Counted from the stretch's first letter, positions 32,427 through 50,719 are shown. The stretch is 64,000 nt of DNA from Patescibacteria group bacterium (GCA_041671325.1 JBAZBR010000001.1:327126-391125), one strand, 5' to 3'. Numbers and translations are program-made. Notes: generated by a model not told the origin, from the letters alone.

Positions 32427-34844
32427 TTATTTTACTTTTCGGTAAAAAAAGAAATTACCAGTATTTTGGATTAATTTGTAACTTGGATCTTTGGCTAAGT
32501 CCTCAGCTTGTAAATGATTTCTTTGCCATTCCAAAGTACCGGCTTTGGCCATTAAAATGAAAATATAATCAGCTTCCCCTATGCCTTGTGGAAATTGAAA
32601 TAAATATTGCCTATGGGCAAGTTGTGCGCCAACTGTATTGGTTGCAGAAACTTTGGCTTCAAACGGTACATTTTTTATGGCTTCTTTGACAATTGGGGCC
32701 ATAGGCGCTGGCCAATAAACTCGCATATCTTTGGTTTGGGAATAAGGAAGAGGGCTTAAACGGTAAGATTCAATGGCGGTAGTAATTATTAATAATATTA
32801 AGATACACATTTCTAAACTAAATTTAGAATTTTTTTGAATTTTTATTTGCCACCAGGGGCCAATTCTTTTTTTAATGGCGGCAATACCAAAGATTGTTGA
32901 GATGAATATAAATCCGGTTATAGTCGCTTGATAATGGTAATTAAGCAACCTTGGCTCAATCCGGTCATTGAATAAATTTACGGCAAAGTCTGGCCAAGCT
33001 ATGGCTAAAGTTAAAGGACTAGCTACTGGCAAAAATGCTACAGAGCCAAGTAAGCCGGCATAAAGATGGCGGGCTTGGTTGCCTGCCACCATTGATAAAA
33101 CCAACCTTGGATGCGAAAGCAGGTTTTTGGATATTGATTCAGGTTTATTGCCCAAAGTCTGGTATTGGTAGTTATATTTACTGGGTTGCCAATTCCTGGC
33201 CATTGGCATCAACCAAAATAAATTTAGGCTTAAATAAGCAAGCGACAAAATAATTATTGTTATGGCTTTTCGCCATTCTTTCCGTTCGTGCCATAAAATG
33301 AATATGCCGAAGGTTGCCACCATCAAGACCAATTCTTCTTTGCACATTGCCAATAATATTGAAAATAGAATAAATGTTTTCCAGCGTTTTTCAAGATAAG
33401 CAAGCATCATGCCTAATGAAAAAGTTGCTCCAAGGGTTAAAGCATGGAAATCAAACATCAGTGCCCTTTGCAAAGTTGGATAAAATAAATAAGCCAAAGC
33501 TAAAACTGCTGACAGCCATTCATGGCCAAGAATTTTTTTTGCAAGACGGAACACTAGCCAACCACCATAAGCCACAACTAGAACCTGAATGATTAATAGA
33601 ATATAGGGGCTTGAATAAATCCAATACAAAGGGGCAAAGAGCACTAAAATTAGGTCTGCATGATGTATGTACCTTAAAACAACATCTGTCCCATATGGAT
33701 TGGTAAATTGAAAAAACCTGCCCTGGCTGGTGTTCCAGACTACCTGGTCCATATTTCCCAAATCAAAGCGTCCGGTTATAACCTTTGAATGCATTAAGCA
33801 GCCCATAACCGTAAAATAAATTGCAAAAAATAAAATTGCTAAGATTACAACTCCTTTTGGTTTTCGTATAAAATTCCATAACCAAATAACAGGCTTTTTC
33901 AGGTATTTCCAAGCAAAGACTATGACCCAGAAGAATTCGACTAAAGTTAGGCCTAAGCGGGTAAAAGAAGCCACTAGGACCCCTGTAACGCCCAGAGAAG
34001 CCTTTAAAATAGCGGCTACGCTAGCTTCTCTTATTCCAATGCCGCTTGGGGTTATAAAGCTAACGTAGCCTAAAAACCAACCAATCGGCATGGCGGCTAA
34101 TATTAATAAAAACTGGTTTGGATTCAGTTTGAAAAAAGCAAGAGTTAGAAACAAGCCACCGAAGGCGTAAAAAGCCCATCCGACAATTAAGATAGTCAGT
34201 AATTGATAATTTTGAAATATAGAATAAGTAATAATTTCTGCAGGTTTTTTTAGCTTTATAAGTAACCAAGTAATTAGTTTTTTGAATATTTTTGAGAACC
34301 AAAAAATAGCAATAGAACCGATAGCTCCAATTATCACTAAAAGTTTGAACCAATTGGGCAAATCTTTTGCGAATAAACTAAAAATTCCTCCCACAACTAC
34401 TGATGCAGAAAGTAACGAAAGAATTTCCAATAAGGTTGCGTAAAACGATTGGTTTTTTGAAACTCCATATTTTTCACTTTGGCCTATCCGGCCTAAAACA
34501 CTCCAAATATTTCCAGGGACATATCTTGTGAATTCAGAAAGCATGATTATTTCCCCAGACTGTTTAAAACTTATTGAATGTCCAAGATCCCTTAGGATTT
34601 TCTTCCAAGCGTAGATCCTGAAAAAGTAATAAAAACTAAAACCCAAAAAAGCCAAAAATAACCAAAACCAGTTTGGTTTAGTGAAATTTTTTGAAACATC
34701 ATGCCAGTTACCCTGCAAAACTTTTACAAAAAACAAAAGAACAATAATTGATATTGCTAGGGTTAAAGTTCTCCTAATCCTGTTCTTATATTTAAACCAA
34801 AGGTTCATTGCCATTCCATTCGGCCCGAATCGGTAGGTTATCAT
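32427..34844 (-). CDS. Fusion membrane protein: flippase-like (LPG_synthase_TM / UPF0104) N-terminal domain plus DUF2079 GT-C-type glycosyltransferase-like C-terminal domain.
   Basis: N-terminal motifs RYVPGNIWSVLGR and TPSGIGIREASV. C-terminal polytopic region with FDLGNMDQVVWNT. 805 aa, more than 15 predicted TM helices. Confidence 0.7.
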   Translation of the reverse strand: MITYRFGPNGMAMNLWFKYKNRIRRTLTLAISIIVLLFFVKVLQGNWHDVSKNFTKPNWFWLFLAFLGFSFYYFFRIYAWKKILRDLGHSISFKQSGEIIMLSEFTRYVPGNIWSVLGRIGQSEKYGVSKNQSFYATLLEILSLLSASVVVGGIFSLFAKDLPNWFKLLVIIGAIGSIAIFWFSKIFKKLITWLLIKLKKPAEIITYSIFQNYQLLTILIVGWAFYAFGGLFLTLAFFKLNPNQFLLILAAMPIGWFLGYVSFITPSGIGIREASVAAILKASLGVTGVLVASFTRLGLTLVEFFWVIVFAWKYLKKPVIWLWNFIRKPKGVVILAILFFAIYFTVMGCLMHSKVITGRFDLGNMDQVVWNTSQGRFFQFTNPYGTDVVLRYIHHADLILVLFAPLYWIYSSPYILLIIQVLVVAYGGWLVFRLAKKILGHEWLSAVLALAYLFYPTLQRALMFDFHALTLGATFSLGMMLAYLEKRWKTFILFSILLAMCKEELVLMVATFGIFILWHERKEWRKAITIIILSLAYLSLNLFWLMPMARNWQPSKYNYQYQTLGNKPESISKNLLSHPRLVLSMVAGNQARHLYAGLLGSVAFLPVASPLTLAIAWPDFAVNLFNDRIEPRLLNYHYQATITGFIFISTIFGIAAIKKRIGPWWQIKIQKNSKFSLEMCILILLIITTAIESYRLSPLPYSQTKDMRVYWPAPMAPIVKEAIKNVPFEAKVSATNTVGAQLAHRQYLFQFPQGIGEADYIFILMAKAGTLEWQRNHLQAEDLAKDPSYKLIQNTGNFFFYRKVK

Positions 34845-36875: not shown

Positions 36876-38534
36876 TTAAAATTTAACGGTTTTACCGAAA
36901 GGTATTGCTGCGCTTTGATCGCTTGGTTGTGGAGGCTGAGGCTTGAAATTTTGGTTTTCCCTACGGTTTTGAGGTTTAAAACGGTTTGGCCGAAAACCTT
37001 GATTTCTTGGTGGTCCAAAATTACGATTTCCCTGAAAATGTTGGGCTACAGGCTGTTTGTTTAATTCAGAAAGTTTGATCGGCGAAACTTCAGATTCATT
37101 AATAACTGGCTCTACGGTAACTTCTGGACTTTGAAAAAGGTCTTTGGGGGGTCGTTTCTTTTTGCCTTCGGTTCGATAAATGGATTCTTCCTTTTCAACT
37201 GCCTGGTTTTCTTCCTCGGCGGAAGCCCGATAAACATCTTCAACCCCACTCCAACGTAAAACTTTTTCTTCAACATCAGCTCGTTTTAATGTATATCGTT
37301 CCCTGGATACGGCAATTACCTTTTCACGATTGTTTGTCGGGATAAGTTCCATCGGCGGTAAAGTGGTGGCGCTGAATGGCTGTGAAGCTACGCCGTCTAT
37401 CATTAATTTCAAATAAACTTCATATTTTGGCAAATTGACCAAATCAACCTGGGTAAAGGTCGGAAAAAATTCTTTTTCTAAAAATTCAGCATCTGCTCCG
37501 CCAACCCGGAAAGCCATAATTGTGCCTACGTTGCCAAAAACTGCAGGGGCAACAGTTTCATCCAGCTGCTCAATGTATTGGTGGGCGATAATTAAATTCA
37601 AGCGGTATTTTCTGGCTTCTGAAAGAATATTGGCAAAACTTTCAGTGGCGAAATTTTGAAATTCATCTACGTACAAGAAAAAATCCGAACGTTCATTTTC
37701 CGGCAAATCCACTCGGCTCATGGCCGCTAATTGTAAACGGGTTATCATCATGGCACCCAATAAAGCCGAATTATCTTCGCCTATCCGGCCTTTAGCCAGA
37801 TTAAAAAGTAAAATTTTATTGCTATCCATTACTTCTCTTAAATCAATCGTACTTTTAGTTTGACCGACGATATTGCGGATAATTGCGCTGGATAAAAATT
37901 GACCGACTTTGTTTTGGATTGGGGCAACAGCTTCATTCCTGAACTTATCGTTATAATTCGCAAATTCATCGACCCAGAAACCTTTTACTATCGGATCGGT
38001 CACTTTAGTTAAGACTCGAGTCCGGTATCGGGCATCAACTAGCATCCTGGCAATGCCAAGCATGGTGGAACCGGGGTATTCCAATAAAGCTAAAATCGTA
38101 TTATTTAATATGTATTCCATCCGGGCGCTCCAGACCCCTTCCCAGATTTTTGTAAAGACACCCATCAAGCCAGAGGCAACTAAATGCCTTTGGGTTTCAT
38201 CAACAGTTTCTAGAACATTAAAACCAATTGGATGCTCAATGTCGGCAGGATTAAAGTAAACAACATCATTAATTCTGTTATTAGGTATGTAATCTAAAAC
38301 TTTTTCAACCAAATCACCGTGCGGATCGACTAGGGCAATTCCGTTGCCTGCATTTAAATCGTTAATTATCATCCGTTCGATTACTGTAGATTTGCCCATA
38401 CCGGTTTTTCCAATCAAATACATATGCCGCCTGCGGTCGTCCGTCTTAATGCCAAAACGCCGGAAATATCCCCGGTAATTGGTTTGGGCAAAAACATTAA
38501 CATCTTTTAAATCGTATGGCATATTATTCGACAA
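36876..38534 (-). CDS. Type IV coupling-protein-like P-loop ATPase (VirD4/TraG/TraD family, TraG-D_C-like), lacking a TM domain.
   Basis: Walker A GKTGMGKST and ALVDPHGDL (DPKGD-like). Walker B LYVDEFQNF, then ARKYRLNLIIAHQYIEQL. Pro/Gln/Asn-rich C-terminal tail. Confidence 0.65.
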   Translation of the reverse strand: MSNNMPYDLKDVNVFAQTNYRGYFRRFGIKTDDRRRHMYLIGKTGMGKSTVIERMIINDLNAGNGIALVDPHGDLVEKVLDYIPNNRINDVVYFNPADIEHPIGFNVLETVDETQRHLVASGLMGVFTKIWEGVWSARMEYILNNTILALLEYPGSTMLGIARMLVDARYRTRVLTKVTDPIVKGFWVDEFANYNDKFRNEAVAPIQNKVGQFLSSAIIRNIVGQTKSTIDLREVMDSNKILLFNLAKGRIGEDNSALLGAMMITRLQLAAMSRVDLPENERSDFFLYVDEFQNFATESFANILSEARKYRLNLIIAHQYIEQLDETVAPAVFGNVGTIMAFRVGGADAEFLEKEFFPTFTQVDLVNLPKYEVYLKLMIDGVASQPFSATTLPPMELIPTNNREKVIAVSRERYTLKRADVEEKVLRWSGVEDVYRASAEEENQAVEKEESIYRTEGKKKRPPKDLFQSPEVTVEPVINESEVSPIKLSELNKQPVAQHFQGNRNFGPPRNQGFRPNRFKPQNRRENQNFKPQPPQPSDQSAAIPFGKTVKF

Positions 38535-40083
38535 AAGGCAGGTTGACGGGCACTTCTGGTTCTTTTATTTCAGGTTGTTGGATTGAAGTTTGAGGTTGAG
38601 CCGGAAATTGCTGTTGAGGTGCTGTATACATTGGTTGTTTAGGCAGGGCCATGGGTGGGCTGGCTTTTGGGTGCATAGAAACTGAGTGAACTTTTTGGAT
38701 AGGCAGAGGACTTTCAAAAGGCAGGGATGAGGGTGCGCCAGAACGTTTAGTTTCGGTCTTTTGAACTTGTCCGGCTTTTACATCAATGGTTGGGGGGTGG
38801 AATATAGTCGCTAGTTCTTCAACATTCAAGTACATTGGAGTACGTCCGCGCCATATTGACCTAGATCTATAATTGTTTAAATTCCTTTTCTTTCTCAAAA
38901 TCAGCCTTCTTTCTTTGAAAAAGACGATATCGCTGGTTTTTGTAAATTTATTGAATGTAAACAAATTACAATCTTGCAGGGTAAATTGTTTCAAGGCACC
39001 GACTACGCCATTAACACCCCTGGCCTTGCTAAATGGTTTAATGCCGTCTGGCCCAGGGGTTTTCTTGCCCCAATAAATAAATCTCCCTTTCACTTTAAAT
39101 GCCACTTTGGTCAATTTCATTTGGACTTGGGTGACGGTATCTCTTTCCCCCGGTGATAAATGAAGCATTAAGGTCGGTGGCTCTTCCCTTTTAAATTTTT
39201 CCTGTTCATGACTAATTGGGATCAAAGAGGCAGTAAGTGATTCACGTACTCCTTTGACTACATTCGCGGGAATTTCAAAAGGATTACCGGAACTTTTTCC
39301 TTTTCTGCCAATTAGTTTATTAACAATATTTTTTGCTTGCTCGCGCCATTCGGCGGGATAATCCACTGTCTCTTGTTGCAAAACCCATTGGAGCCAAATT
39401 TGTTCATCCGGGCTGATGCGGTTCATTATTTCTAAAAGCGCAGCCATCGGGTCTATTAATTTTTGACTCATGCTGTGCTCAAATAACGGATAAGTCCGAA
39501 TAGGATAACAGCTCGGCATAAGAAGTTGAATTTGGGCAGACCAGCAATCCCATTCCTCATGTGGTATTTCGGCTGGCTTGGGCATTAAATCAACATAATC
39601 TTCTACTTCAGTAATTTCCGCATCTGGGTATTGGGCGTAAACTGCAGACTCGATAATTTCCCGATGAACTATTAGACATCTCACAAAGAATTGGACATAA
39701 CCGCCCAGACTGACGACTTCAACTGACATGCTGGGTGGGACAAAACCATAACCAAAAAATTCAGTAAATGGTAAGCCCCATTTTTCAGGGAATATGGGAG
39801 CTTTTGAAATACCATTAAAATGGGCGAACATCTGCTCAGCGGCTTTCGGGGTTTGTTCACTGTCTTTAGGTACATCAATGGCCAAAAGCACGTACCTGCC
39901 TGCATAGTATTTATTTATGTACCGCCTGGTAACAAAATCCCACCAAACATATTTTAAACCAACTATAAAGGTTATGACGACTGCAATCCAGCCTCCATTC
40001 TGAAAGAGAAACCACATCATTAAAATTGGGTTGGCTGATGAAGTTCGGAAAGCTTCAGCCATGCCTGAAAGATCTATTATCAT
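38524..40083 (-). CDS. Membrane-anchored hypothetical protein (519 aa). Candidate membrane partner of the ATPase.
   Basis: N-terminal hydrophobic hairpin (ILMMWFLFQNGGWIAVVITFIVGL) and a large soluble region without known motifs. Pro/Gln-rich C-terminus. It overlaps the ATPase gene by 11 nt. Confidence 0.6.
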   Translation of the reverse strand: MIIDLSGMAEAFRTSSANPILMMWFLFQNGGWIAVVITFIVGLKYVWWDFVTRRYINKYYAGRYVLLAIDVPKDSEQTPKAAEQMFAHFNGISKAPIFPEKWGLPFTEFFGYGFVPPSMSVEVVSLGGYVQFFVRCLIVHREIIESAVYAQYPDAEITEVEDYVDLMPKPAEIPHEEWDCWSAQIQLLMPSCYPIRTYPLFEHSMSQKLIDPMAALLEIMNRISPDEQIWLQWVLQQETVDYPAEWREQAKNIVNKLIGRKGKSSGNPFEIPANVVKGVRESLTASLIPISHEQEKFKREEPPTLMLHLSPGERDTVTQVQMKLTKVAFKVKGRFIYWGKKTPGPDGIKPFSKARGVNGVVGALKQFTLQDCNLFTFNKFTKTSDIVFFKERRLILRKKRNLNNYRSRSIWRGRTPMYLNVEELATIFHPPTIDVKAGQVQKTETKRSGAPSSLPFESPLPIQKVHSVSMHPKASPPMALPKQPMYTAPQQQFPAQPQTSIQQPEIKEPEVPVNLPFVE

Positions 40084-40089
40084 GTTGGT

Positions 40090-41232
40090 TTAATTGGGAT
40101 TTGCTTTTTCAAGTAAAATATATTCACCTGATGGAAGTTTTGTAAATTTACTGTGATTTGTTAAAGCTAATTGAATAGTATTTTTTTTCACCATCCGCTG
40201 CTTTAAAACTTCTTCAACTAATTCATCTCTTTTCATTGACCGTCCTGATTTTTTTAAAACCTCGGCCAAAATATCAGCAACAACGCCTGGCTTATATCCC
40301 CATTCTTTTAAGGCATATATTCCCCTACCGACTAAAACATACCGGCTGTTTAAAATCAGTTCATTATGCACAGTTGGTGGATAAGCAACCCGATGATCAA
40401 ACTTTGTTTGATTTATAAGTTTGGTAATTTCGTTAAAATGCAAAGGTTTATTAGCTTTCTTTAAAATCAGATATATTTTGTCATTCATCCTTTTTGGAAT
40501 TATAGAACCCCATCCGACCAGGCCATATTCATTATATGGATTTTTTGCAATTTGCTTGCTTATATCAATATAAGATAAAATAGCCTCATCACTTAATTGG
40601 AACCTGTGTTCCTCGCCAAATTTTGTTTTTCTAATTTTTTCTATTAATTCCGAAACTTTTAAAGGTTTGCTTTCTGCTTGTAAAATTTCTTCAGCTTGAG
40701 TTATGGTCTCAGTCACTAAATGAATGGGTGCAGTTTTTAATTGCCATGCAGTATGAAAATTTTCATTAATAACGAAATTCTTTAGTTTATCTGTTAATAT
40801 AAAACGCATGACAAATAAAGTTGCGGATTTAGCCGATTGTTGGTCTTCCTTGATATCCAAAATTTGGCTTAGGAAATTTTCTTCCTTAATGATTCCCCCA
40901 TGATTATTGATTACATTAATAATTGCATCAGCCAAATGTTGGACTTGATTGGCGGTTTGAGTGAATTTTTTTATTTTTGAAATTGCCCCGGACTCAATTT
41001 GCCGGATTCTCTCTCTGGTCACTTTATAAATTTCACCGATTTGTTCAAGGGTTTCAGCTGGTTTTCCGTGCAGACCATAGCGACGACGTAAAACATCTTC
41101 TTCTCTTGAAGATAAGCTTTTTAGCAAATTCGAAATCACTTCAACAGGGTTGAAATGCTCAATTTCTTGATTTTGTTTCTGGTTTAAAACTCTGTCCAGA
41201 ATTGAACCTGTATTAGAAATCGGTCCACTCAT
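40090..41232 (-). CDS. DNA-binding protein with N-terminal sigma-70 region-4-like HTH and C-terminal HARE-HTH (RNAP delta-like) domain.
   Basis: REEDVLRRRYGL ... TLEQIGEIYKVTRERIRQIESGAISKIKK has the sigma region 4 pattern. The C-terminus PLHFNEITKLI ... YVLVGRGIYALKEWGY matches the HARE-HTH of RpoE/delta. Confidence 0.6.
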   Translation of the reverse strand: MSGPISNTGSILDRVLNQKQNQEIEHFNPVEVISNLLKSLSSREEDVLRRRYGLHGKPAETLEQIGEIYKVTRERIRQIESGAISKIKKFTQTANQVQHLADAIINVINNHGGIIKEENFLSQILDIKEDQQSAKSATLFVMRFILTDKLKNFVINENFHTAWQLKTAPIHLVTETITQAEEILQAESKPLKVSELIEKIRKTKFGEEHRFQLSDEAILSYIDISKQIAKNPYNEYGLVGWGSIIPKRMNDKIYLILKKANKPLHFNEITKLINQTKFDHRVAYPPTVHNELILNSRYVLVGRGIYALKEWGYKPGVVADILAEVLKKSGRSMKRDELVEEVLKQRMVKKNTIQLALTNHSKFTKLPSGEYILLEKANPN

Positions 41233-41348
41233 AAGGCTAAATATTAATAACTTGTATTAATATAGCACTTTATTGTTATACTGTCAAGTTTTTATTATAA
41301 AACAAAATTTAACCTTACTTGAAGTTCAAGCTTTATAATATATTAGTC

Positions 41349-42251
41349 TTAATTTTTTTTCTTTTGCCTGAAATTGTTCCAAGTAACCAATATTGGAGAA
41401 GCTACAAAGATTGATGAATATGTACCTGAAGCAATGCCTATAAGCAATGCTAAAACAAAGTTCCTGATTGTATTGCCTCCGAATAACACTAAAGCAAATA
41501 AAATTAACAGAGCCGTCATGGAAGTATTTATTGATCTGACCATAGTTTGGTTCATGCTCTCATTGACCACTTCTTCATAAGTTTTGCCAGTTGAGGAAAT
41601 TAATCTTTCCCGAATTCTATCGTAAACAACAATCGTATCATGCACTGAAAAACCTAAAATTGTAAGCAAAGCAGTAACGAATAGGGTGTCAATTTCTATG
41701 CCAAAAAAATGCCCGAAGATTGAAAAAATACCTATGACCATAATCATATCGTGAACCAAAGCGATAATGGCACTGACGCCATATATCCAAGAAGGAACAG
41801 GACCTACAGACACTTTTCTGAATGCCCAAGTAATGTATAAAATAATCAAAATTAAAACTATGGCCATTGCGGTTATGGATTTTCTTTTCAACTCGGAGCC
41901 GATGGTTGGGCCGATTGTTTCAAAACTGTTTTCAGTTATTTTTTCATCAAATTTTTTCAAGTTGCTTAATATTTTTTCTTTTTGTGCATTGGTTATTGGT
42001 TCTAATCTCAGGCTTAAACCTTTTTCACCAGTCAATTGAATGCTGACATTTTTTACTTCCGCAACTTTTACAGCCTCGGTAATTTGCTGGGTTGAGGGAA
42101 CATTTTTTGAAAATTCCAAGCGCATTAATGATCCTCCGGTGAAATCAATGCCAAATTTAAAACCCCAAATAAACATTGAAAGAATTCCTGGAATCAATAA
42201 CAACAATGATAAGGTGTAATAATATTTCCTTTTCTGGATAATTGCGTACAT
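41349..42251 (-). CDS. secF: Protein translocase subunit SecF.
   Basis: 300 aa with six TM helices and SecF-like sequence throughout. It directly follows secD. Confidence 0.88.
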   Translation of the reverse strand: MYAIIQKRKYYYTLSLLLLIPGILSMFIWGFKFGIDFTGGSLMRLEFSKNVPSTQQITEAVKVAEVKNVSIQLTGEKGLSLRLEPITNAQKEKILSNLKKFDEKITENSFETIGPTIGSELKRKSITAMAIVLILIILYITWAFRKVSVGPVPSWIYGVSAIIALVHDMIMVIGIFSIFGHFFGIEIDTLFVTALLTILGFSVHDTIVVYDRIRERLISSTGKTYEEVVNESMNQTMVRSINTSMTALLILFALVLFGGNTIRNFVLALLIGIASGTYSSIFVASPILVTWNNFRQKKKN

Positions 42252-42255
42252 AATT

Positions 42256-43950
42256 TTATTCTTTAGATTTTTGCGGGTCTCTTAAGCCAAACCATTTTGG
42301 GTTTTTAACCCAATTAAATGTGGTTACCAACCTCAAGAGCATCCGGGTAACCGTGATTGCGGAAAATAAACTGACCACGATACCAATCAACAAGGTTATG
42401 GCAAAACCCTTGACAATACTTGAACCAAACCAAACTAAAATAAGCGAAGTGATTATGCTTGAAACATTTGAATCGCGAATTGACAGCCAAGCGCGTTTAA
42501 AGCCTTCTTCAATAGCAATTTCCAACGGCCGGCCGTTGTGCAGCTCTTCTTTGGTTCTTTCAAAAATTAAAATATTGGCGTCTAAAGCAATGCCTATTGA
42601 AAGGATAAACCCGGCTATGCCCGCTAAAGTCAAAGTAACCGGCCAAAGTTTGAAAATCGCCACAACTATTAGGGTGTATAAAACCAGAGCTAAAGAGGCT
42701 AATAATCCAGGTAGCCGATAAAAAACTATCATGAAAATAGCAACTACGATGATACCTAATAAGCCGGCAAAAATACTTCTAGCAATTGAATCATTACCCA
42801 GGGTTGCCCCGACAGTTTGTTGGCTAATCAAGTTAACTGGAACCGGTAAGGCCCCGGCGTTTAGTCTTTTCGCTAAATCTTTCGCCTCTTTTAAAGTGAA
42901 ACTTCCGCTTATGACTGCTTCTCCGCCTGTAATTTCTTGATTAACCGTAGGATTACTGATAATTTGGCCGTCTAAAAAAATTGCCACGTTTTTGCCAATA
43001 TTTCTTTTGGTTATTTCTGCAAAAAGTTTTGTACCTTCGCTATTAAAACTTAAACTGACTTCAGGTTCACCGGTTGACTGGTTAAAAGCCACGCCGGCCC
43101 TTTGTAATTGTTTTCCTGAAAGCCCAGTATCTTTAAAGGCTATTTGGGTTTGGTCATTCGCAATAGTAAATAAAATATGCGCTCCTCTAACTTCTAAAAT
43201 ATCTTTTCCATCTTCCTGAATAGTTTTATCTTCAATTCTTTTAATGATATGGTAGCCGAATTCAGTTTTGACCAATTTTGGGTAAACTTGATCGTTTTTT
43301 AATTCATCAAAAAGAACTTTTTCGAATTCGGCGACAAAAGTGCCTTTTTTGGCAAAACCTAAATCCCCACCCTTTTGTTTTCCTGCTGAATCAGCATTGC
43401 TCGGATCTTGGGAATATTCATTAGCTAAAGCTGAAAAATCAGCATTTTTTACTAAAGCTTTTTTCAAAACTTCTTCTGCCTGTTTTTTAGTTGCCGCCTC
43501 TGCATCTATCTGAGCTTTTTTTTGAGCCTCAGTTTGGGTTTGATTTTGGTCAACTTCCTTAAATTCTAAAATTGGCGTATCGCCAATCATTTTAATTGCC
43601 TGGTCAATGTCTTTAATCCCGGCTAATTCAACAATTATCCGCCAACTATTTCCAGATTTACTGGTTTGAACCACTGGCTCAGAAACCCCAAAAGCGTTAA
43701 CTCGTCTTTCAATGACATCCCTAACGCTTTCCAAGGCTTGGGCTTGGTCACCGCTAACGATATTTTTTGTGTCAGCTTCGTAAATTAAAGATGAACCGCC
43801 TTGCAAGTCTAAGCCGAGCCGAAGGTCAAATTGTTTGCCAAATATTTTAATATTTGGAAGCAAATTTTTTGGTAAAGCAATATAGCTAACTACCAAACCA
43901 AGCACGATTATTAGCGAAAAATTAAGCCAAAGTTTTTTTCTAGAAGTCAT
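42256..43950 (-). CDS. secD: Protein translocase subunit SecD.
   Basis: N-terminal TM helix, large periplasmic domain and a C-terminal six-TM bundle. Paired with secF. Confidence 0.88.
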   Translation of the reverse strand: MTSRKKLWLNFSLIIVLGLVVSYIALPKNLLPNIKIFGKQFDLRLGLDLQGGSSLIYEADTKNIVSGDQAQALESVRDVIERRVNAFGVSEPVVQTSKSGNSWRIIVELAGIKDIDQAIKMIGDTPILEFKEVDQNQTQTEAQKKAQIDAEAATKKQAEEVLKKALVKNADFSALANEYSQDPSNADSAGKQKGGDLGFAKKGTFVAEFEKVLFDELKNDQVYPKLVKTEFGYHIIKRIEDKTIQEDGKDILEVRGAHILFTIANDQTQIAFKDTGLSGKQLQRAGVAFNQSTGEPEVSLSFNSEGTKLFAEITKRNIGKNVAIFLDGQIISNPTVNQEITGGEAVISGSFTLKEAKDLAKRLNAGALPVPVNLISQQTVGATLGNDSIARSIFAGLLGIIVVAIFMIVFYRLPGLLASLALVLYTLIVVAIFKLWPVTLTLAGIAGFILSIGIALDANILIFERTKEELHNGRPLEIAIEEGFKRAWLSIRDSNVSSIITSLILVWFGSSIVKGFAITLLIGIVVSLFSAITVTRMLLRLVTTFNWVKNPKWFGLRDPQKSKE

Positions 43951-44013: not shown

Positions 44014-45411
44014 TTAATTTTGAACTCTGACTGGAGTGCTGATTTCTGCCCATTTAAAAACTTCTTTTGATTCTGCGGGTGACAACCTAATGCAACCGTG
44101 TGAAACTCTAATGCCTAAATGTTTGACACCTTCATAATAAATGCCACCATTTTTTAACTTCCAGTATGGCAAGGAATGGATGCCATATGCGCCATCTGAT
44201 GTAAATGCCATCCAGTTATCCATATATAAACTGTATTTTCTTGAATAAGCAACGTTCATTTTATTTTTTATTGAAAAGTTACCCAAGGGCGTAGGCATTG
44301 ACCATTTACCCGTTGAAACCCTATAGGTTTTTATTAATTTGCCATTTTCATAGCGTTTCAGTTTTTGTTCGGAAATATCAACGACAATCAGCTTTCCAGA
44401 ACCGACGTTTTCATCCATTTGCTCAGAGCCTACGGGAACAACAATTATTTCTTGGTCACTATCTCCATCAACATTTGCGGTAGCCACAGAAAGCCCTTGG
44501 GTATAATTTTTCCCATACGGGAAGAATTTTATTTTACCTTTTTGGCCATTTGGCAAATAACTAATAACTTGGGCGGAAGTTCCTGGCGCATCAGCTAAAA
44601 CTATTTCATTTTTTGAACCCAAGGTGTTTTGATTTGAAATTTTCAAATTATTTGGAAAAATGTTAGAAGTTTTAAAAGTAGAAGTCAAATTACCATCAGC
44701 TTGGAAAACTTTGATTAAGGAATTTTTTTCAATTTTTGTAGTTACTATTTCAAAATTTCCATCATTGTTCAGGTCAAATGCCAAGGGAATCACACCAGTA
44801 CGGACATTTTTTGGATAAGCCCAAAATTCAGAAAGTTTTTTACCATCTTGATTAAAAATGGCCACTCTCGGTCCACCGCCTTTGCCAGGCGCAGTAATAA
44901 TTTCATCAATTTTATCGCCATTAACATCGGCAACGTCCATATATACCCCGCCCTTAAATCCTTTTTCATAAGCTAAAAAAGTTTTAAGTTTTTTACCATT
45001 TAAATCAAATATCCAGATTTCAGGTGTAGTACCTTGGCCAAAGCTTGTAATGATTTCTTTTTTCCCATCATTATTAATATCACCGATTGCAACCCTGATA
45101 GCCGGTTTATTTTTAACATTTTTTAAATTGATGTTTTTTAAAATCCAACCGTCATTTTTCAAAATCCTTATCCCGGGATTTTTTCCGGTTGCGGTCCCGT
45201 AAATTATTTCAACTGCGCCATCATTATTCAAATCCGCCGCGGCAATATTTACACCAGCTGGGATATTTGAGATTTTCCTAATTAGCTTGCCATTAGCTTC
45301 AAAAATTCCAGCTTGAATAGTAGCGGCTTGGCTGTTTTTAATGACAACAAATGACCCCAGTAAAAAAATACTGAATATAAAAAGTCTAATAATTACTAGT
45401 TTTTTATTCAT
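44014..45411 (-). CDS. Secreted L,D-transpeptidase (YkuD domain) with N-terminal FG-GAP/VCBS-like repeats.
   Basis: The C-terminus has the YkuD catalytic motif SHGCIRL. Repeated DxNxDGxxEI motifs. Signal peptide MNKKLVII... The start was moved to the ATG at 45411. Confidence 0.8.
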   Translation of the reverse strand: MNKKLVIIRLFIFSIFLLGSFVVIKNSQAATIQAGIFEANGKLIRKISNIPAGVNIAAADLNNDGAVEIIYGTATGKNPGIRILKNDGWILKNINLKNVKNKPAIRVAIGDINNDGKKEIITSFGQGTTPEIWIFDLNGKKLKTFLAYEKGFKGGVYMDVADVNGDKIDEIITAPGKGGGPRVAIFNQDGKKLSEFWAYPKNVRTGVIPLAFDLNNDGNFEIVTTKIEKNSLIKVFQADGNLTSTFKTSNIFPNNLKISNQNTLGSKNEIVLADAPGTSAQVISYLPNGQKGKIKFFPYGKNYTQGLSVATANVDGDSDQEIIVVPVGSEQMDENVGSGKLIVVDISEQKLKRYENGKLIKTYRVSTGKWSMPTPLGNFSIKNKMNVAYSRKYSLYMDNWMAFTSDGAYGIHSLPYWKLKNGGIYYEGVKHLGIRVSHGCIRLSPAESKEVFKWAEISTPVRVQN

Positions 45412-45442
45412 TTTTATTTTTATTTTAAGCCTTAATATTACT

Positions 45443-45471
45443 ATCTTAACACAAAATTGACATAAAGTCAA
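45443..45471 (-). promoter_or_regulatory. Putative promoter of the L,D-transpeptidase gene.
   Basis: On the minus strand: TTGACT, 17 bp, TAAGAT, about 30 bp upstream of the ATG. Confidence 0.4.
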
Positions 45472-45503
45472 CAAAGTTATGCTGTTTTAATTATATTAAT
45501 TTA

Positions 45504-48010: not shown

Positions 48011-50719
48011 TTATTGGCCATGGCACCGCTTATATTTTTTTCCACTCTGACAAGGACATGGATCATTCCTACCGATTTTTTTGCTGGCAAACGGGTTAGT
48101 TGAACTTTGGGAAACTTCAGGCATAGCCGTGGAAGTTGAGGAATTATCAATCGCTTCTTTGGCTGGTGCTGAAAGAGTTAAATTCTTCGGCTGGCTTTGG
48201 TTTTGCTCAACAATATTTTGGGAAACGTGGGCTTTGAAAATCGTATGGACTAATTGCGAACGGATAGAATTCAATAATTGGCTGAATAATAAATATGCTT
48301 CTTTTTTATATTCAACCAAGGGATCTCTTTGGCCATAACCCCTTAAGCCAATGCCTTGGCGCAAGTGATCCATTAAATCCAAGTGCTCAATCCACAGCGT
48401 ATCAATAACTCTTAATTCTACGGCTCTTTCAACCAAGCGCATTAAATTTTGACCCGTGTCTTTAGCTTGACGGCCAGTTGGTGACTCACATACATCTTTT
48501 TCTAGTCTGATGTATGCTTCTTCCAATAATTTTTGCAAATGTTCAGTTATGGCATTTCTGGTTGCGGCAGTTGATGTGACAACGTTTGCTTCTTGCCTAA
48601 ATGATTCCAGTTTCAATCTGGATTGAAATGGAATTGAAAAAATTGAATCTACGGATTCATAAATTTCATCGAGATTCCATTGGTCTTCTTTATCGCTGGC
48701 GGTATGGGTAGAAACCAGCTGGTTAATTTCATCCTTCAGAGACTCTAAAATTGTTTGCTTACGGCCTTCTGGATTATTTAAACTATTCAAAGTGGCACGA
48801 CGCCGTGAATATATGACTTCTCGATGCTTATTAATAACGTCGTCATATTCAACTAAGTGTTTTCGGATATCAAAGTTATGGCCTTCAACTTTTTTTTGAG
48901 CGCCTTCAATTGAACGGGAAATCATCTTGTTTTCAATTGGCATGTCTTCTGGCACGCCAAGCCTTTCCATTAAACCTTTGACCCTGTCACCGCCAAAAAT
49001 ACGCATCAAGTCATCCTCTAGTGATAAAAAGAATTGGGAAGAACCAGGATCGCCTTGGCGGCCAGCACGACCGCGTAACTGGTTATCAATTCGCCTGGAC
49101 TCATGCCTTTCTGTGCCTATGACGTGTAAACCGCCTAATTTTTTAACTTTTTCCGCTTCTTCAGCAACATATGGATTCCCGCCTAAGATTATATCCACAC
49201 CCCGACCAGCCATATTAGTAGCAACTGTTACGCCACCTAAGCGACCTGCCTGGGAAATCACGCCTGCTTCTTTTTCGTGGTTTTTTGCGTTTAATAAATT
49301 ATGCGGAATGCCTTCTCGATCCAATAACTGGCTTAACATTTCGTTTTTAGCAATGGAAATCGTGCCAATTAAAATAGGCTGGCCAAGGTCATGCCTAACT
49401 TTGACATCACGGGCAATGGCCTCATATTTACCCATTTCGGTTTTATACACGCTATCTGCAACATCATTCCTGATCATGGATTTATTGGTTGGAATGGTAA
49501 CAACTTCCAGATTATAAATTTTTGAAAATTCCTCAGCTTCGGTAGAGGCTGTGCCAGTCATGCCAGAAAGCTTTTTGTACATGCGGAAATAATTCTGGAA
49601 AGTGATGGTGGCTAAAGTTTGAGATTCCTGTTTTATCTCAACGTGCTCTTTAGCTTCAATGGCTTGATGTAAACCTTCAGAATACCTTCGGCCATGCATC
49701 ATGCGTCCGGTAAATTCGTCTACAATTATCACTTCATTTTCTTTAACCACATAATCCCGATCACGTTTGAATAAAGCATGGGCTTTTAAGGCTTGCTCAA
49801 TGTGGTGGACAATTTCCACTCCGCCCGCTTCATAAATATTCCCGACGCCAAGCCAGCCCTCAATCTTGCTAATCCCCTGTTCGGTTAAAGTTGAAGCCCG
49901 TAATTTTTCATCAATATTATAATCCGGACCTTCTTCAAGCCTTTGGACTAAATCTGCAAAACGGTAATATTGTTCGCTTGGCGTATCCGAAGGGCCGGAA
50001 ATTATCAATGGTGTCCGAGCCTCATCAATTAAAATTGAATCAACTTCATCGACAATGCCATAAACCAAATCTCTCTGGGCTAAATATTGCGGATCGGGAA
50101 CCATATTATCCCGCAAATAATCAAAACCGAATTCATTATTGGTTCCGTAGGTGATGTCTGCCTTATAGGCGCTTGGACGGTCAACTGGCTTAAGGTTTTT
50201 AGTCAATTCATCGCCCTCATAACTTGGGTCATAAATAAATGCTGCTTCATGCTGGATAGTACCCACTGAAAGCCCAAGAAAATGATAAATTTGCCCCATC
50301 CAACGGGTATCACGTTTGGCTAAATAATCATTAACGGTCACCACATGGACGCCCTCGCCAGTAACAGCATTTAGATAAGCTGGCAAGGTGGCTACTAGGG
50401 TTTTTCCCTCACCAGTACGCATTTCTGAGATTTTTCCCTGATGCAAAACAATACCGCCCATCAACTGCACGTCAAAATGCCTTTGGCCCAAAGTCCTTTT
50501 GGCAGCTTCTCTGACTAAGGCAAAAGCTTCAGGCAAGAGCTTGTCCAAGGATTCGCCTTTGGTATAGCGATCGTAAAATTCCTTAGTTTTTTCCGGAAAT
50601 CTGGAGTCTGGGAATTTACTGACCTCGCTTTCAAAAACATTAATTTGCTTAACCAAAGGCTCGAGGTCTTTTACCACCTTATCATTGGGGTTGCCAAAAA
50701 TTGTATTAATTAATCCCAT
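48011..50719 (-). CDS. secA: Preprotein translocase ATPase SecA.
   Basis: DEAD-like motor motifs (MRTGEGKTLVA, DEVDSILIDEARTPLIISG) and C-terminal zinc finger CPCQSGKKYKRCHG. Confidence 0.95.
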   Translation of the reverse strand: MGLINTIFGNPNDKVVKDLEPLVKQINVFESEVSKFPDSRFPEKTKEFYDRYTKGESLDKLLPEAFALVREAAKRTLGQRHFDVQLMGGIVLHQGKISEMRTGEGKTLVATLPAYLNAVTGEGVHVVTVNDYLAKRDTRWMGQIYHFLGLSVGTIQHEAAFIYDPSYEGDELTKNLKPVDRPSAYKADITYGTNNEFGFDYLRDNMVPDPQYLAQRDLVYGIVDEVDSILIDEARTPLIISGPSDTPSEQYYRFADLVQRLEEGPDYNIDEKLRASTLTEQGISKIEGWLGVGNIYEAGGVEIVHHIEQALKAHALFKRDRDYVVKENEVIIVDEFTGRMMHGRRYSEGLHQAIEAKEHVEIKQESQTLATITFQNYFRMYKKLSGMTGTASTEAEEFSKIYNLEVVTIPTNKSMIRNDVADSVYKTEMGKYEAIARDVKVRHDLGQPILIGTISIAKNEMLSQLLDREGIPHNLLNAKNHEKEAGVISQAGRLGGVTVATNMAGRGVDIILGGNPYVAEEAEKVKKLGGLHVIGTERHESRRIDNQLRGRAGRQGDPGSSQFFLSLEDDLMRIFGGDRVKGLMERLGVPEDMPIENKMISRSIEGAQKKVEGHNFDIRKHLVEYDDVINKHREVIYSRRRATLNSLNNPEGRKQTILESLKDEINQLVSTHTASDKEDQWNLDEIYESVDSIFSIPFQSRLKLESFRQEANVVTSTAATRNAITEHLQKLLEEAYIRLEKDVCESPTGRQAKDTGQNLMRLVERAVELRVIDTLWIEHLDLMDHLRQGIGLRGYGQRDPLVEYKKEAYLLFSQLLNSIRSQLVHTIFKAHVSQNIVEQNQSQPKNLTLSAPAKEAIDNSSTSTAMPEVSQSSTNPFASKKIGRNDPCPCQSGKKYKRCHGQ

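Follow-up and report, generated by a model that had tools for sequence, protein, structure and literature searches.

A sigma-70 region 4 domain followed by four winged helices forms a core protein family of Patescibacteria, encoded beside a predicted VirB4/VirD4-type membrane motor

The 64-kb stretch of Patescibacteria DNA analysed here (64,000 nucleotides (nt), hereafter “the window”) carries, at positions 40090–41232 of the minus strand, the gene of a 380-amino-acid (aa) protein in which region 4 of a sigma-70 factor is followed by four winged helices. The fusion is a lineage-wide core family of Patescibacteria and not the oddity of one genome, and within this family purifying selection is concentrated on the recognition helix of sigma region 4.2 and on the third winged helix. 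The protein itself is neither a sigma factor nor the delta subunit of RNA polymerase (RNAP), because it has neither sigma region 2 nor the acidic tail of delta. Its parts, from the N-terminus, are as follows.

40090–41232, minus strand: gene of the sigma-4/four-winged-helix (HARE-HTH) protein, ATG start, 380 aa, stop codon TAA at 40092–40090 (open reading frame (ORF) list, Pfam, NCBIfam, AlphaFold2 (AF2))
41149–41211, minus strand: N-terminal helix with the “SILDxV” motif, aa 8–28, conserved only among close relatives
40963–41148, minus strand: sigma-70 region 4 (4.1 and 4.2 helix-turn-helix (HTH)), aa 29–90 (Pfam, NCBIfam, PDB)
40738–40956, minus strand: winged helix 1 (wH1), aa 93–165 (AF2 secondary structure, hhalign, conservation)
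40513–40725, minus strand: winged helix 2 (wH2), aa 170–240, a divergent HARE-HTH repeat (hhalign)
40288–40503, minus strand: winged helix 3 (wH3), aa 244–315, a canonical HARE-HTH (TIGR04567, conservation, isoelectric point (pI))
40114–40287, minus strand: winged helix 4 (wH4), aa 316–373, the second Pfam HARE-HTH stretch, best at aa 317–351 (Pfam, AF2, pI)

A first-pass annotation of this DNA had read the N-terminus as sigma-70 region 4, and every profile that we searched agrees: Pfam Sigma70_r4 matches aa 36–89 (E = 2e-13, 50.1 bits against a gathering score of 24.1), the PDB sequence match is to SigA/RpoD region 4 (5.5e-12, falling to 4.7e-20 with a family profile), and NCBIfam, at aa 10–95, matches sigma models of the RpoD/RpoS type at their C-terminal ends only. 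In NCBIfam and the PDB alike, the best entries for the domain are all region 4 of RpoD, SigA, or RpoS; regions 4.1 and 4.2 are both intact, and the nearest relatives are group-1 sigma factors. These matches rule out a LuxR/GerE or other generic HTH, and the GerE/LuxR family has no Pfam match at E ≤ 0.1 in the 380-aa protein. Sigma70_r2 and Sigma70_r3 likewise have no Pfam match at E ≤ 0.1 in this protein, in which about 30 aa precede region 4, while the same search finds both clearly in a fusion protein (P0229) described below; the annotation was therefore right that sigma region 2 is absent, NCBIfam also giving no match to it.

A HARE-HTH domain had been placed at the C-terminus, and there too the profiles are above their cut-offs: Pfam HARE-HTH (PF05066) matches in two stretches (43.3 bits against a gathering score of 25.9), and TIGR04567, the NCBIfam model for the N-terminal domain of low-GC RNAP delta, matches aa 248–311 (45.5 bits, cut-off 42), a position internal to the 380-aa protein and not N-terminal. 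A generic HTH at the N-terminus and a failure of the HARE-HTH profiles were both looked for, and neither was found. What did not stand is the count of one such domain, since four winged helices follow sigma-4 in the AF2 model. This model, built on 53 homologues (mean predicted local distance difference test (pLDDT) 86.5, predicted template modelling score (pTM) 0.68), has an N-terminal helix at aa 11–25, sigma-4 at aa 29–89, and winged helices at aa 93–165, 170–238, 249–308, and 317–373. In profile–profile comparison with hhalign, wH2 is related to wH3 (E = 3e-7) and to wH4 (E = 9e-7), and wH1 has no detectable sequence relation to wH2–wH4. By their profiles wH2–wH4 read as HARE-HTH repeats, with wH3 resembling the delta N-terminal domain. 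The whole protein has a pI of 9.41, with a basic wH3 (10.0) and wH4 (9.6) behind mildly acidic wH1–wH2. Tandem winged helices are also found in UFL1/DDRGK1, the SelB C-terminus, Dcc1, and the cullin WHB domains, which we name for comparison.

The start codon deserves a comment. In the public NCBI annotation, the identical protein (P0001) is 345 aa long and starts at a TTG equivalent to Leu36, which omits 35 N-terminal residues (41127–41232, minus strand); the ATG at 41232 is in all probability the true start, because homologues are conserved upstream of Leu36. The “SILDxV” helix lies in this restored segment. A possible homology of the helix to sigma region 3.2 was considered: HMMER alignments to RpoS reach back to aa 7–11, but a PDB search with a profile made from just the motif gives no sigma factor, and of 138 diverse representatives only 42 have the motif in its strict form.

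The comparison with the two parent families can now be made directly. With the group-1 sigma-70 factors (RpoD/SigA) the protein shares regions 4.1 and 4.2 in both sequence and fold, a recognition helix, VTRERIRQIE, that is identical to residues 582–591 of E. coli sigma-70, and the −35-contact residues. It differs from them in having no regions 1.2, 2, or 3, so that it can neither bind the beta-prime coiled coil nor melt a −10 element, and in carrying sigma-4 at its N-terminus, with the four winged helices behind. Delta (RpoE) of Firmicutes is a protein of about 170 aa with one HARE-HTH and a disordered polyanionic tail (net −47), the part responsible for displacing nucleic acids (PMC7749165). 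The Patescibacteria protein, in contrast, has three or four winged helices and a pI of 9.4, and it ends 7 residues past wH4, with C-terminal domains of pI 9.6–10 where the acidic tail would be.

The family is large and uniform. A whole-protein search returned 5,666 matches, ordinary sigma factors included; the best 120 homologues are all full-length, of similar length, and 49–100% identical, and in precomputed annotation all but one (P0090) have both Pfam domains. Where these homologues, from Patescibacteria, are named at all, NCBI calls them “sigma factor-like helix-turn-helix DNA-binding protein” and JGI “RNA polymerase delta subunit”. We also searched the winged-helix block alone (aa 96–380) against 1.84 billion 50%-identity representatives, which gave 466 clusters at E ≤ 1e-30 and 804 at E ≤ 1e-10. 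Among the best 150 representatives, proteins of 340–400 aa, the block starts at about aa 75–110 in nearly all, and the sigma-4 head is for this reason a constant feature of the family. The general layout is thus a protein of about 340–400 aa with N-terminal sigma-4 and a conserved block of about 280 aa, to which the 380-aa protein conforms.

In contigs with one genome per species, at least 597 loci contain a relative, all of them under titles of the Patescibacteria type or under placeholder labels. The first-pass annotation had taken the architecture to be unusual, a description that cannot be kept for a family carried by at least 597 species-representative genomes. The titles of the best 80 loci name Patescibacteria, Kerfeld-, Buchanan-, Doudna-, Kuenen-, Uhr-, Falkow-, and Andersenbacteria, Saccharibacteria, and Microgenomates. 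Some relatives carry placeholder labels such as “uncultured Gammaproteobacteria”; these are presumably mislabels, as their synteny and identity match the rest. Among 2.9 million viral contigs (IMG/VR) there is one match only, and a phage origin was rejected on that count. We infer vertical inheritance of a chromosomal family, because chromosomal synteny (see below) is conserved and the family is nearly absent from viral contigs. A defence system was also considered and rejected, as the PADLOC matches are only generic (MzaA for sigma-4, and mad8/HerA). The annotation was right to say that no member had been characterised: neither a characterised homologue nor a mechanistic proposal was found in the literature searched. 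The domains are already known and the family is catalogued in databases; its sole published trace is an undiscussed row in transposon-sequencing (Tn-seq) tables, to which we return.

Conservation was read from 138 representatives of the family, no two of which are more than 50% identical. In sigma-4.2, the residues TLE.IG....TRERvRQIe and, in addition, R51 are conserved at 90% or more, and TRERxRQI is present in 126 of the 138. The most conserved part of the protein is wH3, with 21 positions at 90% or more, including DK..P.HF, TvHNELI, and vLvGRG.YaL.eWGy; wH4 has 7 such positions, and conservation is poor in wH1, wH2, and the N-terminal motif. In the HMMER alignment aa 35–89 pair with residues 546–600 of E. 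coli sigma-70, so that R43, R51, L62, E63, and T72 correspond to R554, R562, L573, E574, and T583, and R73, E74, R75, R77, and Q78 to R584, E585, R586, R588, and Q589, respectively. Nine of these ten residues, which we take to be the contacts to −35 DNA, are conserved at 90% or more, and the tenth (R43) at 70–90%. In the structure of Taq sigma-A region 4 on DNA (Campbell et al. 2002), these residues are reported to be the −35 contacts. The sigma-4 domain probably still binds TTGACA-like DNA, because a sigma-4 domain serving as a mere protein anchor would not need its DNA-contact residues.

The gene is the first of a three-gene unit, the other members of which, together with the predicted promoter, are as follows.

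41259–41287, minus strand: predicted sigma-A-type promoter of the three-gene unit (TTGACA, 17 nt, extended −10 TGcTATATT; 11/12 matches with TG in the scan)
38524–40083, minus strand: partner 1, a 519-aa membrane protein (N-terminal transmembrane (TM) helix, homologues with PF26449, fold like the VirB4 N-terminal domain)
36876–38534, minus strand: partner 2, a 552-aa VirD4/TrwB-like P-loop ATPase (Pfam, PDB TrwB, Walker motifs)

Partner 1 starts 6 nt past the stop codon of the sigma-4/winged-helix gene. The ATPase passes the Pfam thresholds for TrwB_AAD_bind (45 bits), T4SS-DNA_transf, DUF87, and TraG-D_C, matches TrwB in the PDB at 2e-6, and has a Walker A motif GKTGMGKST and a Walker B motif LYVDEF. 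Its start is ambiguous, being either the TTG at 38534, which gives an 11-nt overlap with the membrane-protein gene, or the ATG at 38522, 1 nt past the stop codon of that gene; either start suggests that they are translationally coupled. The membrane protein and the ATPase (36876–40083, minus strand) align with successive halves of a single phage protein family, phrog_5156, whose profile has 824 positions, and distant homologues of the ATPase, at 21–27% identity, are found in Bacillus phage G (gp156) and in the SPO1-like phages CP-51, CampHawk, and SP82G. The pair is best described as a putative split VirB4/VirD4-type membrane motor, composed of a DUF8128 anchor with the VirB4 N-terminal-domain fold and a P-loop motor. 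Such genes are common in these bacteria: 5,713 VirD4-like homologues were counted in 2,918 Patescibacteria genomes, 148 of them near virB4, and the authors left open an exaptation of the VirD4-like genes for another function (PMC12102498).

We then followed the trio through the best 80 homologous loci by tblastn of the window neighbours. The order sigma-4/winged-helix protein, membrane protein, ATPase, all on one strand, is kept in 76–77 of the 80, and the three loci without the full order all end at a contig edge. Across loci the ATPase is 57–77% identical (77/80 loci), the sigma-4/winged-helix protein 35–57%, and the membrane protein 25–44%. The gap between the membrane protein and the ATPase is typically 1–9 nt, and that between the first gene and the membrane protein has a median of about 50 nt. 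The predicted promoter ends 27 nt upstream of the ATG, and of 71 homologous loci, 63 have a TTGAC[AT] hexamer in the 200 nt upstream of the gene, compared with 20% of all ORFs of at least 200 aa; because of this enrichment, the trio is usually its own transcription unit. The gene nearly always has one consensus −35 upstream; extra TTGACA copies, which might have pointed to autoregulation, bring the number to two or more in just 8 of the 71 loci. A sigma factor gene adjoins it in only 1 of the 80 loci and does not do so in the window, and no relaxase, VirB6/VirB8 channel components, or oriT are among the features seen in the roughly 10 kb scanned to either side.

Genetic data come from the transposon tables of Southlakia epibionticum ML1 (Wang et al. 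2023, Tables S1/S2, PMC10633639). SEML1_0294 of this organism (1050 bp, 349 aa) is annotated “RNA polymerase sigma factor RpoS”, has PF04545 at aa 27–72 and PF05066 at aa 225–283, is parsed there into one sigma-4-containing and three winged domains, and is flagged as a core family enriched in Patescibacteria (PMC10633639). It is called essential at all three time points (ES/ES/ES), with 24 insertions in the input and 1 at T0 (PMC10633639). SEML1_0293, the 2766-bp gene directly downstream, has its VirD4-type Pfam domains at aa 402–719 and is called non-essential (NE), its normalised reads falling from 5817 through 2940 to 1372 over the passages (PMC10633639). Neither gene is discussed in the text of that paper (PMC10633639). 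The two loci have in common the Pfam pair (PF04545 and PF05066), a similar protein length, and a VirD4-like ATPase gene directly downstream; they differ in that SEML1_0293 is a fusion of membrane domain and ATPase, 921 aa in all, and that secDF is not upstream of SEML1_0294.

Since SEML1_0294 is listed as essential and SEML1_0293 is not, the protein must, if the orthology holds, do more than regulate the motor or serve as its adaptor; the exception would be a motor that becomes toxic when the protein is lost. The suggestion in the first-pass annotation that the protein might be dedicated to the downstream ATPase operon is thus not supported: the gene order speaks for a very strong link to the ATPase, but an essential counterpart beside a dispensable ATPase speaks against dedication.

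Of the readings that we weighed, the one we favour, tentatively and at a little less than even confidence, is a reader of −35-type DNA that works with or controls the motor and has in addition an essential role independent of it. The sigma-4 HTH would bind TTGACA-like (−35-type) DNA; the basic and highly conserved wH3–wH4 pair would form a second surface, for nucleic acid or for a partner; and wH1–wH2 would be spacers. As a subunit of the membrane motor, the protein would recognise DNA for it or control it, and so be comparable to an accessory protein of a type IV coupling protein (T4CP) or to the FtsK gamma domain, and its motor-independent role would most plausibly be at promoters or at the nucleoid. 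Several points weigh against this. The case for DNA binding is drawn from residue conservation only, and if the protein were a mere adaptor, a species that can do without the motor should be able to do without the protein too. Both domain types bind RNAP in characterised contexts, which favours the rival taken up next, and part of the synteny may come from the stable gene order of small genomes. Finally, the orthology of SEML1_0294 is based on the Pfam pair, length, domain parse, and neighbour, and not on a sequence alignment.

Possible, though on balance unlikely, is a general transcription factor of the lineage that is docked on RNAP, with sigma-4 at the beta-flap tip and wH3 near the beta-prime shelf/jaw, and with the ATPase only loosely connected; it would be a counterpart of the essential accessory factors CarD/RbpA, or an analogue of delta. 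The first-pass annotation had proposed something related, an anti-sigma-like or delta-like regulator that would bind RNAP. In favour of docking, regions 4.1 and 4.2 are both intact and closest to group-1 sigma factors, wH3 is above the cut-off of the delta equivalog, and the delta N-terminal domain binds RNAP (PMC7749165). The S. epibionticum counterpart is moreover essential like RpoD, independently of the ATPase. On the other hand, sigma-4 would have to compete with region 4 of sigma-A for both the flap and the −35 element, the acidic tail is missing, and conservation peaks on DNA-facing residues that an anchor to the flap alone would not need. The near-universal synteny with the motor would also stay unexplained.

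A rare fusion bears on this rival. In P0229 (800 aa, locus L081 6001–8403) a complete primary-like sigma factor, with regions 2, 3, and 4, is fused ahead of the sigma-4/four-winged-helix protein, the second recognition helix of which is degenerate (VTRQRIQQIK). The gene adjoins parB and has no motor pair downstream; it is found on 5 contigs (4 shown, from 3–4 sample accessions). The fusion, in a lineage that lacks the ATPase pair, hints at a link of the protein to sigma and RNAP, but as the only 90% cluster of its kind it is no more than a lead and has little weight. A further candidate for a domain fusion, P0268, was rejected as a SecF read-through.

Less probable again is an autoregulator or safety catch specific to the operon, which would bind either the −35 of its own promoter or the motor and would be essential because an unrestrained motor is toxic. 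The gene is the first of its unit, with a consensus TTGACA −35 directly upstream and a TTGAC[AT] in the great majority of loci (the 63 of 71 given above), and an essential regulator with a dispensable target fits an antitoxin-like logic. Yet an autorepressor would hardly call for five domains, 380 aa, and a very strongly conserved wH3; TTGACA, as the hexamer of promoters in general, is not specific to this operon; and the sigma-fused lineage retains the protein where there is no motor.

We regard as doubtful, and as a shade less probable than such an autoregulator, an essential Patescibacteria-specific transcription component in which sigma-4 (on the beta flap and the −35 element) and a delta-like winged helix would sit on RNAP and tether promoter DNA or polymerase to the VirB4/VirD4-type motor. 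If true, this coupling of transcription to a secretion-type ATPase would be without a described counterpart.

Coupling proteins recruit substrates that are encoded nearby. The idea that the coupling-protein-like motor secretes the protein into the host cell, where it would disturb RNAP or promoters of the host, draws on this and on the facts that Patescibacteria are epibionts with an essential type IV secretion system (PMC10633639; PMC12857230) and that a sigma-4 module could in principle engage a foreign polymerase or promoter, but it is very improbable, given that the motor is dispensable and the protein essential, that conservation of the family is high even between lineages whose hosts differ greatly, which is not typical of effectors, that no secretion signal was identified in the protein, and that most such T4CP homologues are not encoded near virB4.

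The arrangement can also be set beside two other known kinds of system. The gamma winged helix of FtsK, the C-terminal winged helix of Streptomyces TraB, and the relaxosome proteins TraM, TrwA, and PcfF are DNA-binding modules or partners of FtsK/VirD4-type motors. By analogy with these, the locus likewise encodes a sequence-reading module together with a membrane-anchored hexameric P-loop translocase; there is no homology, however, the protein being a separate one of five domains whose counterpart is essential independently of the motor. TraM, TrwA, and PcfF moreover have the ribbon-helix-helix fold, and the locus shows no evident relaxase or oriT. With CarD/RbpA of Actinobacteria the family shares a distribution within one large lineage, where it is near-universal, and essentiality in the one organism tested, but no relation in sequence or fold.

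Patescibacteria, which are ultrasmall bacteria, are a large share of bacterial diversity, and in the one model that is in culture only a single sigma factor has been annotated. A protein that keeps the promoter-reading end of a sigma factor throughout this lineage, and is listed as essential, has had no discussion that we could find in the literature searched. The family also gives a handle on a published puzzle, namely the thousands of orphan type IV coupling-protein homologues encoded far from secretion systems. Furthermore, the SEML1_0294/0293 pair sits in a genetically tractable organism, so that the competing models are directly testable.

Directly upstream of the trio are the genes of the Sec accessory proteins:

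41349–43950, minus strand: secD-secF (Pfam), in conserved synteny, not claimed as part of the system

They are directly upstream in 56–57 of the 80 loci, and conservation of the remaining neighbours decays much faster. Here and in 19 of the 80 loci, secA (48011–50719, minus strand, in the window) lies about 7–8 kb upstream of the trio; the trio and the three sec genes thus make up a block that is loosely conserved. Within about 10 kb on each side are secA, secDF, an L,D-transpeptidase, a glycosyltransferase, mnmA, and others, and across the 64-kb window no tRNA genes and no Rfam families at the gathering threshold were found. SecD (42256–43950, minus strand) has a PPIC-type domain (Rotamase_3/Rotamase, aa 143–240) inserted between its first periplasmic segment and the P1 head. 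The transpeptidase is a 486-aa protein (44014–45474, minus strand) with FG-GAP repeats and a C-terminal YkuD L,D-transpeptidase domain, and is upstream of secD in 19 of the 80 loci. On the other side of the trio, an 805-aa ORF (32427–34844, minus strand) combines a TM region of the lysyl-phosphatidylglycerol-synthase type with DUF2079 and adjoins a family-2 glycosyltransferase.

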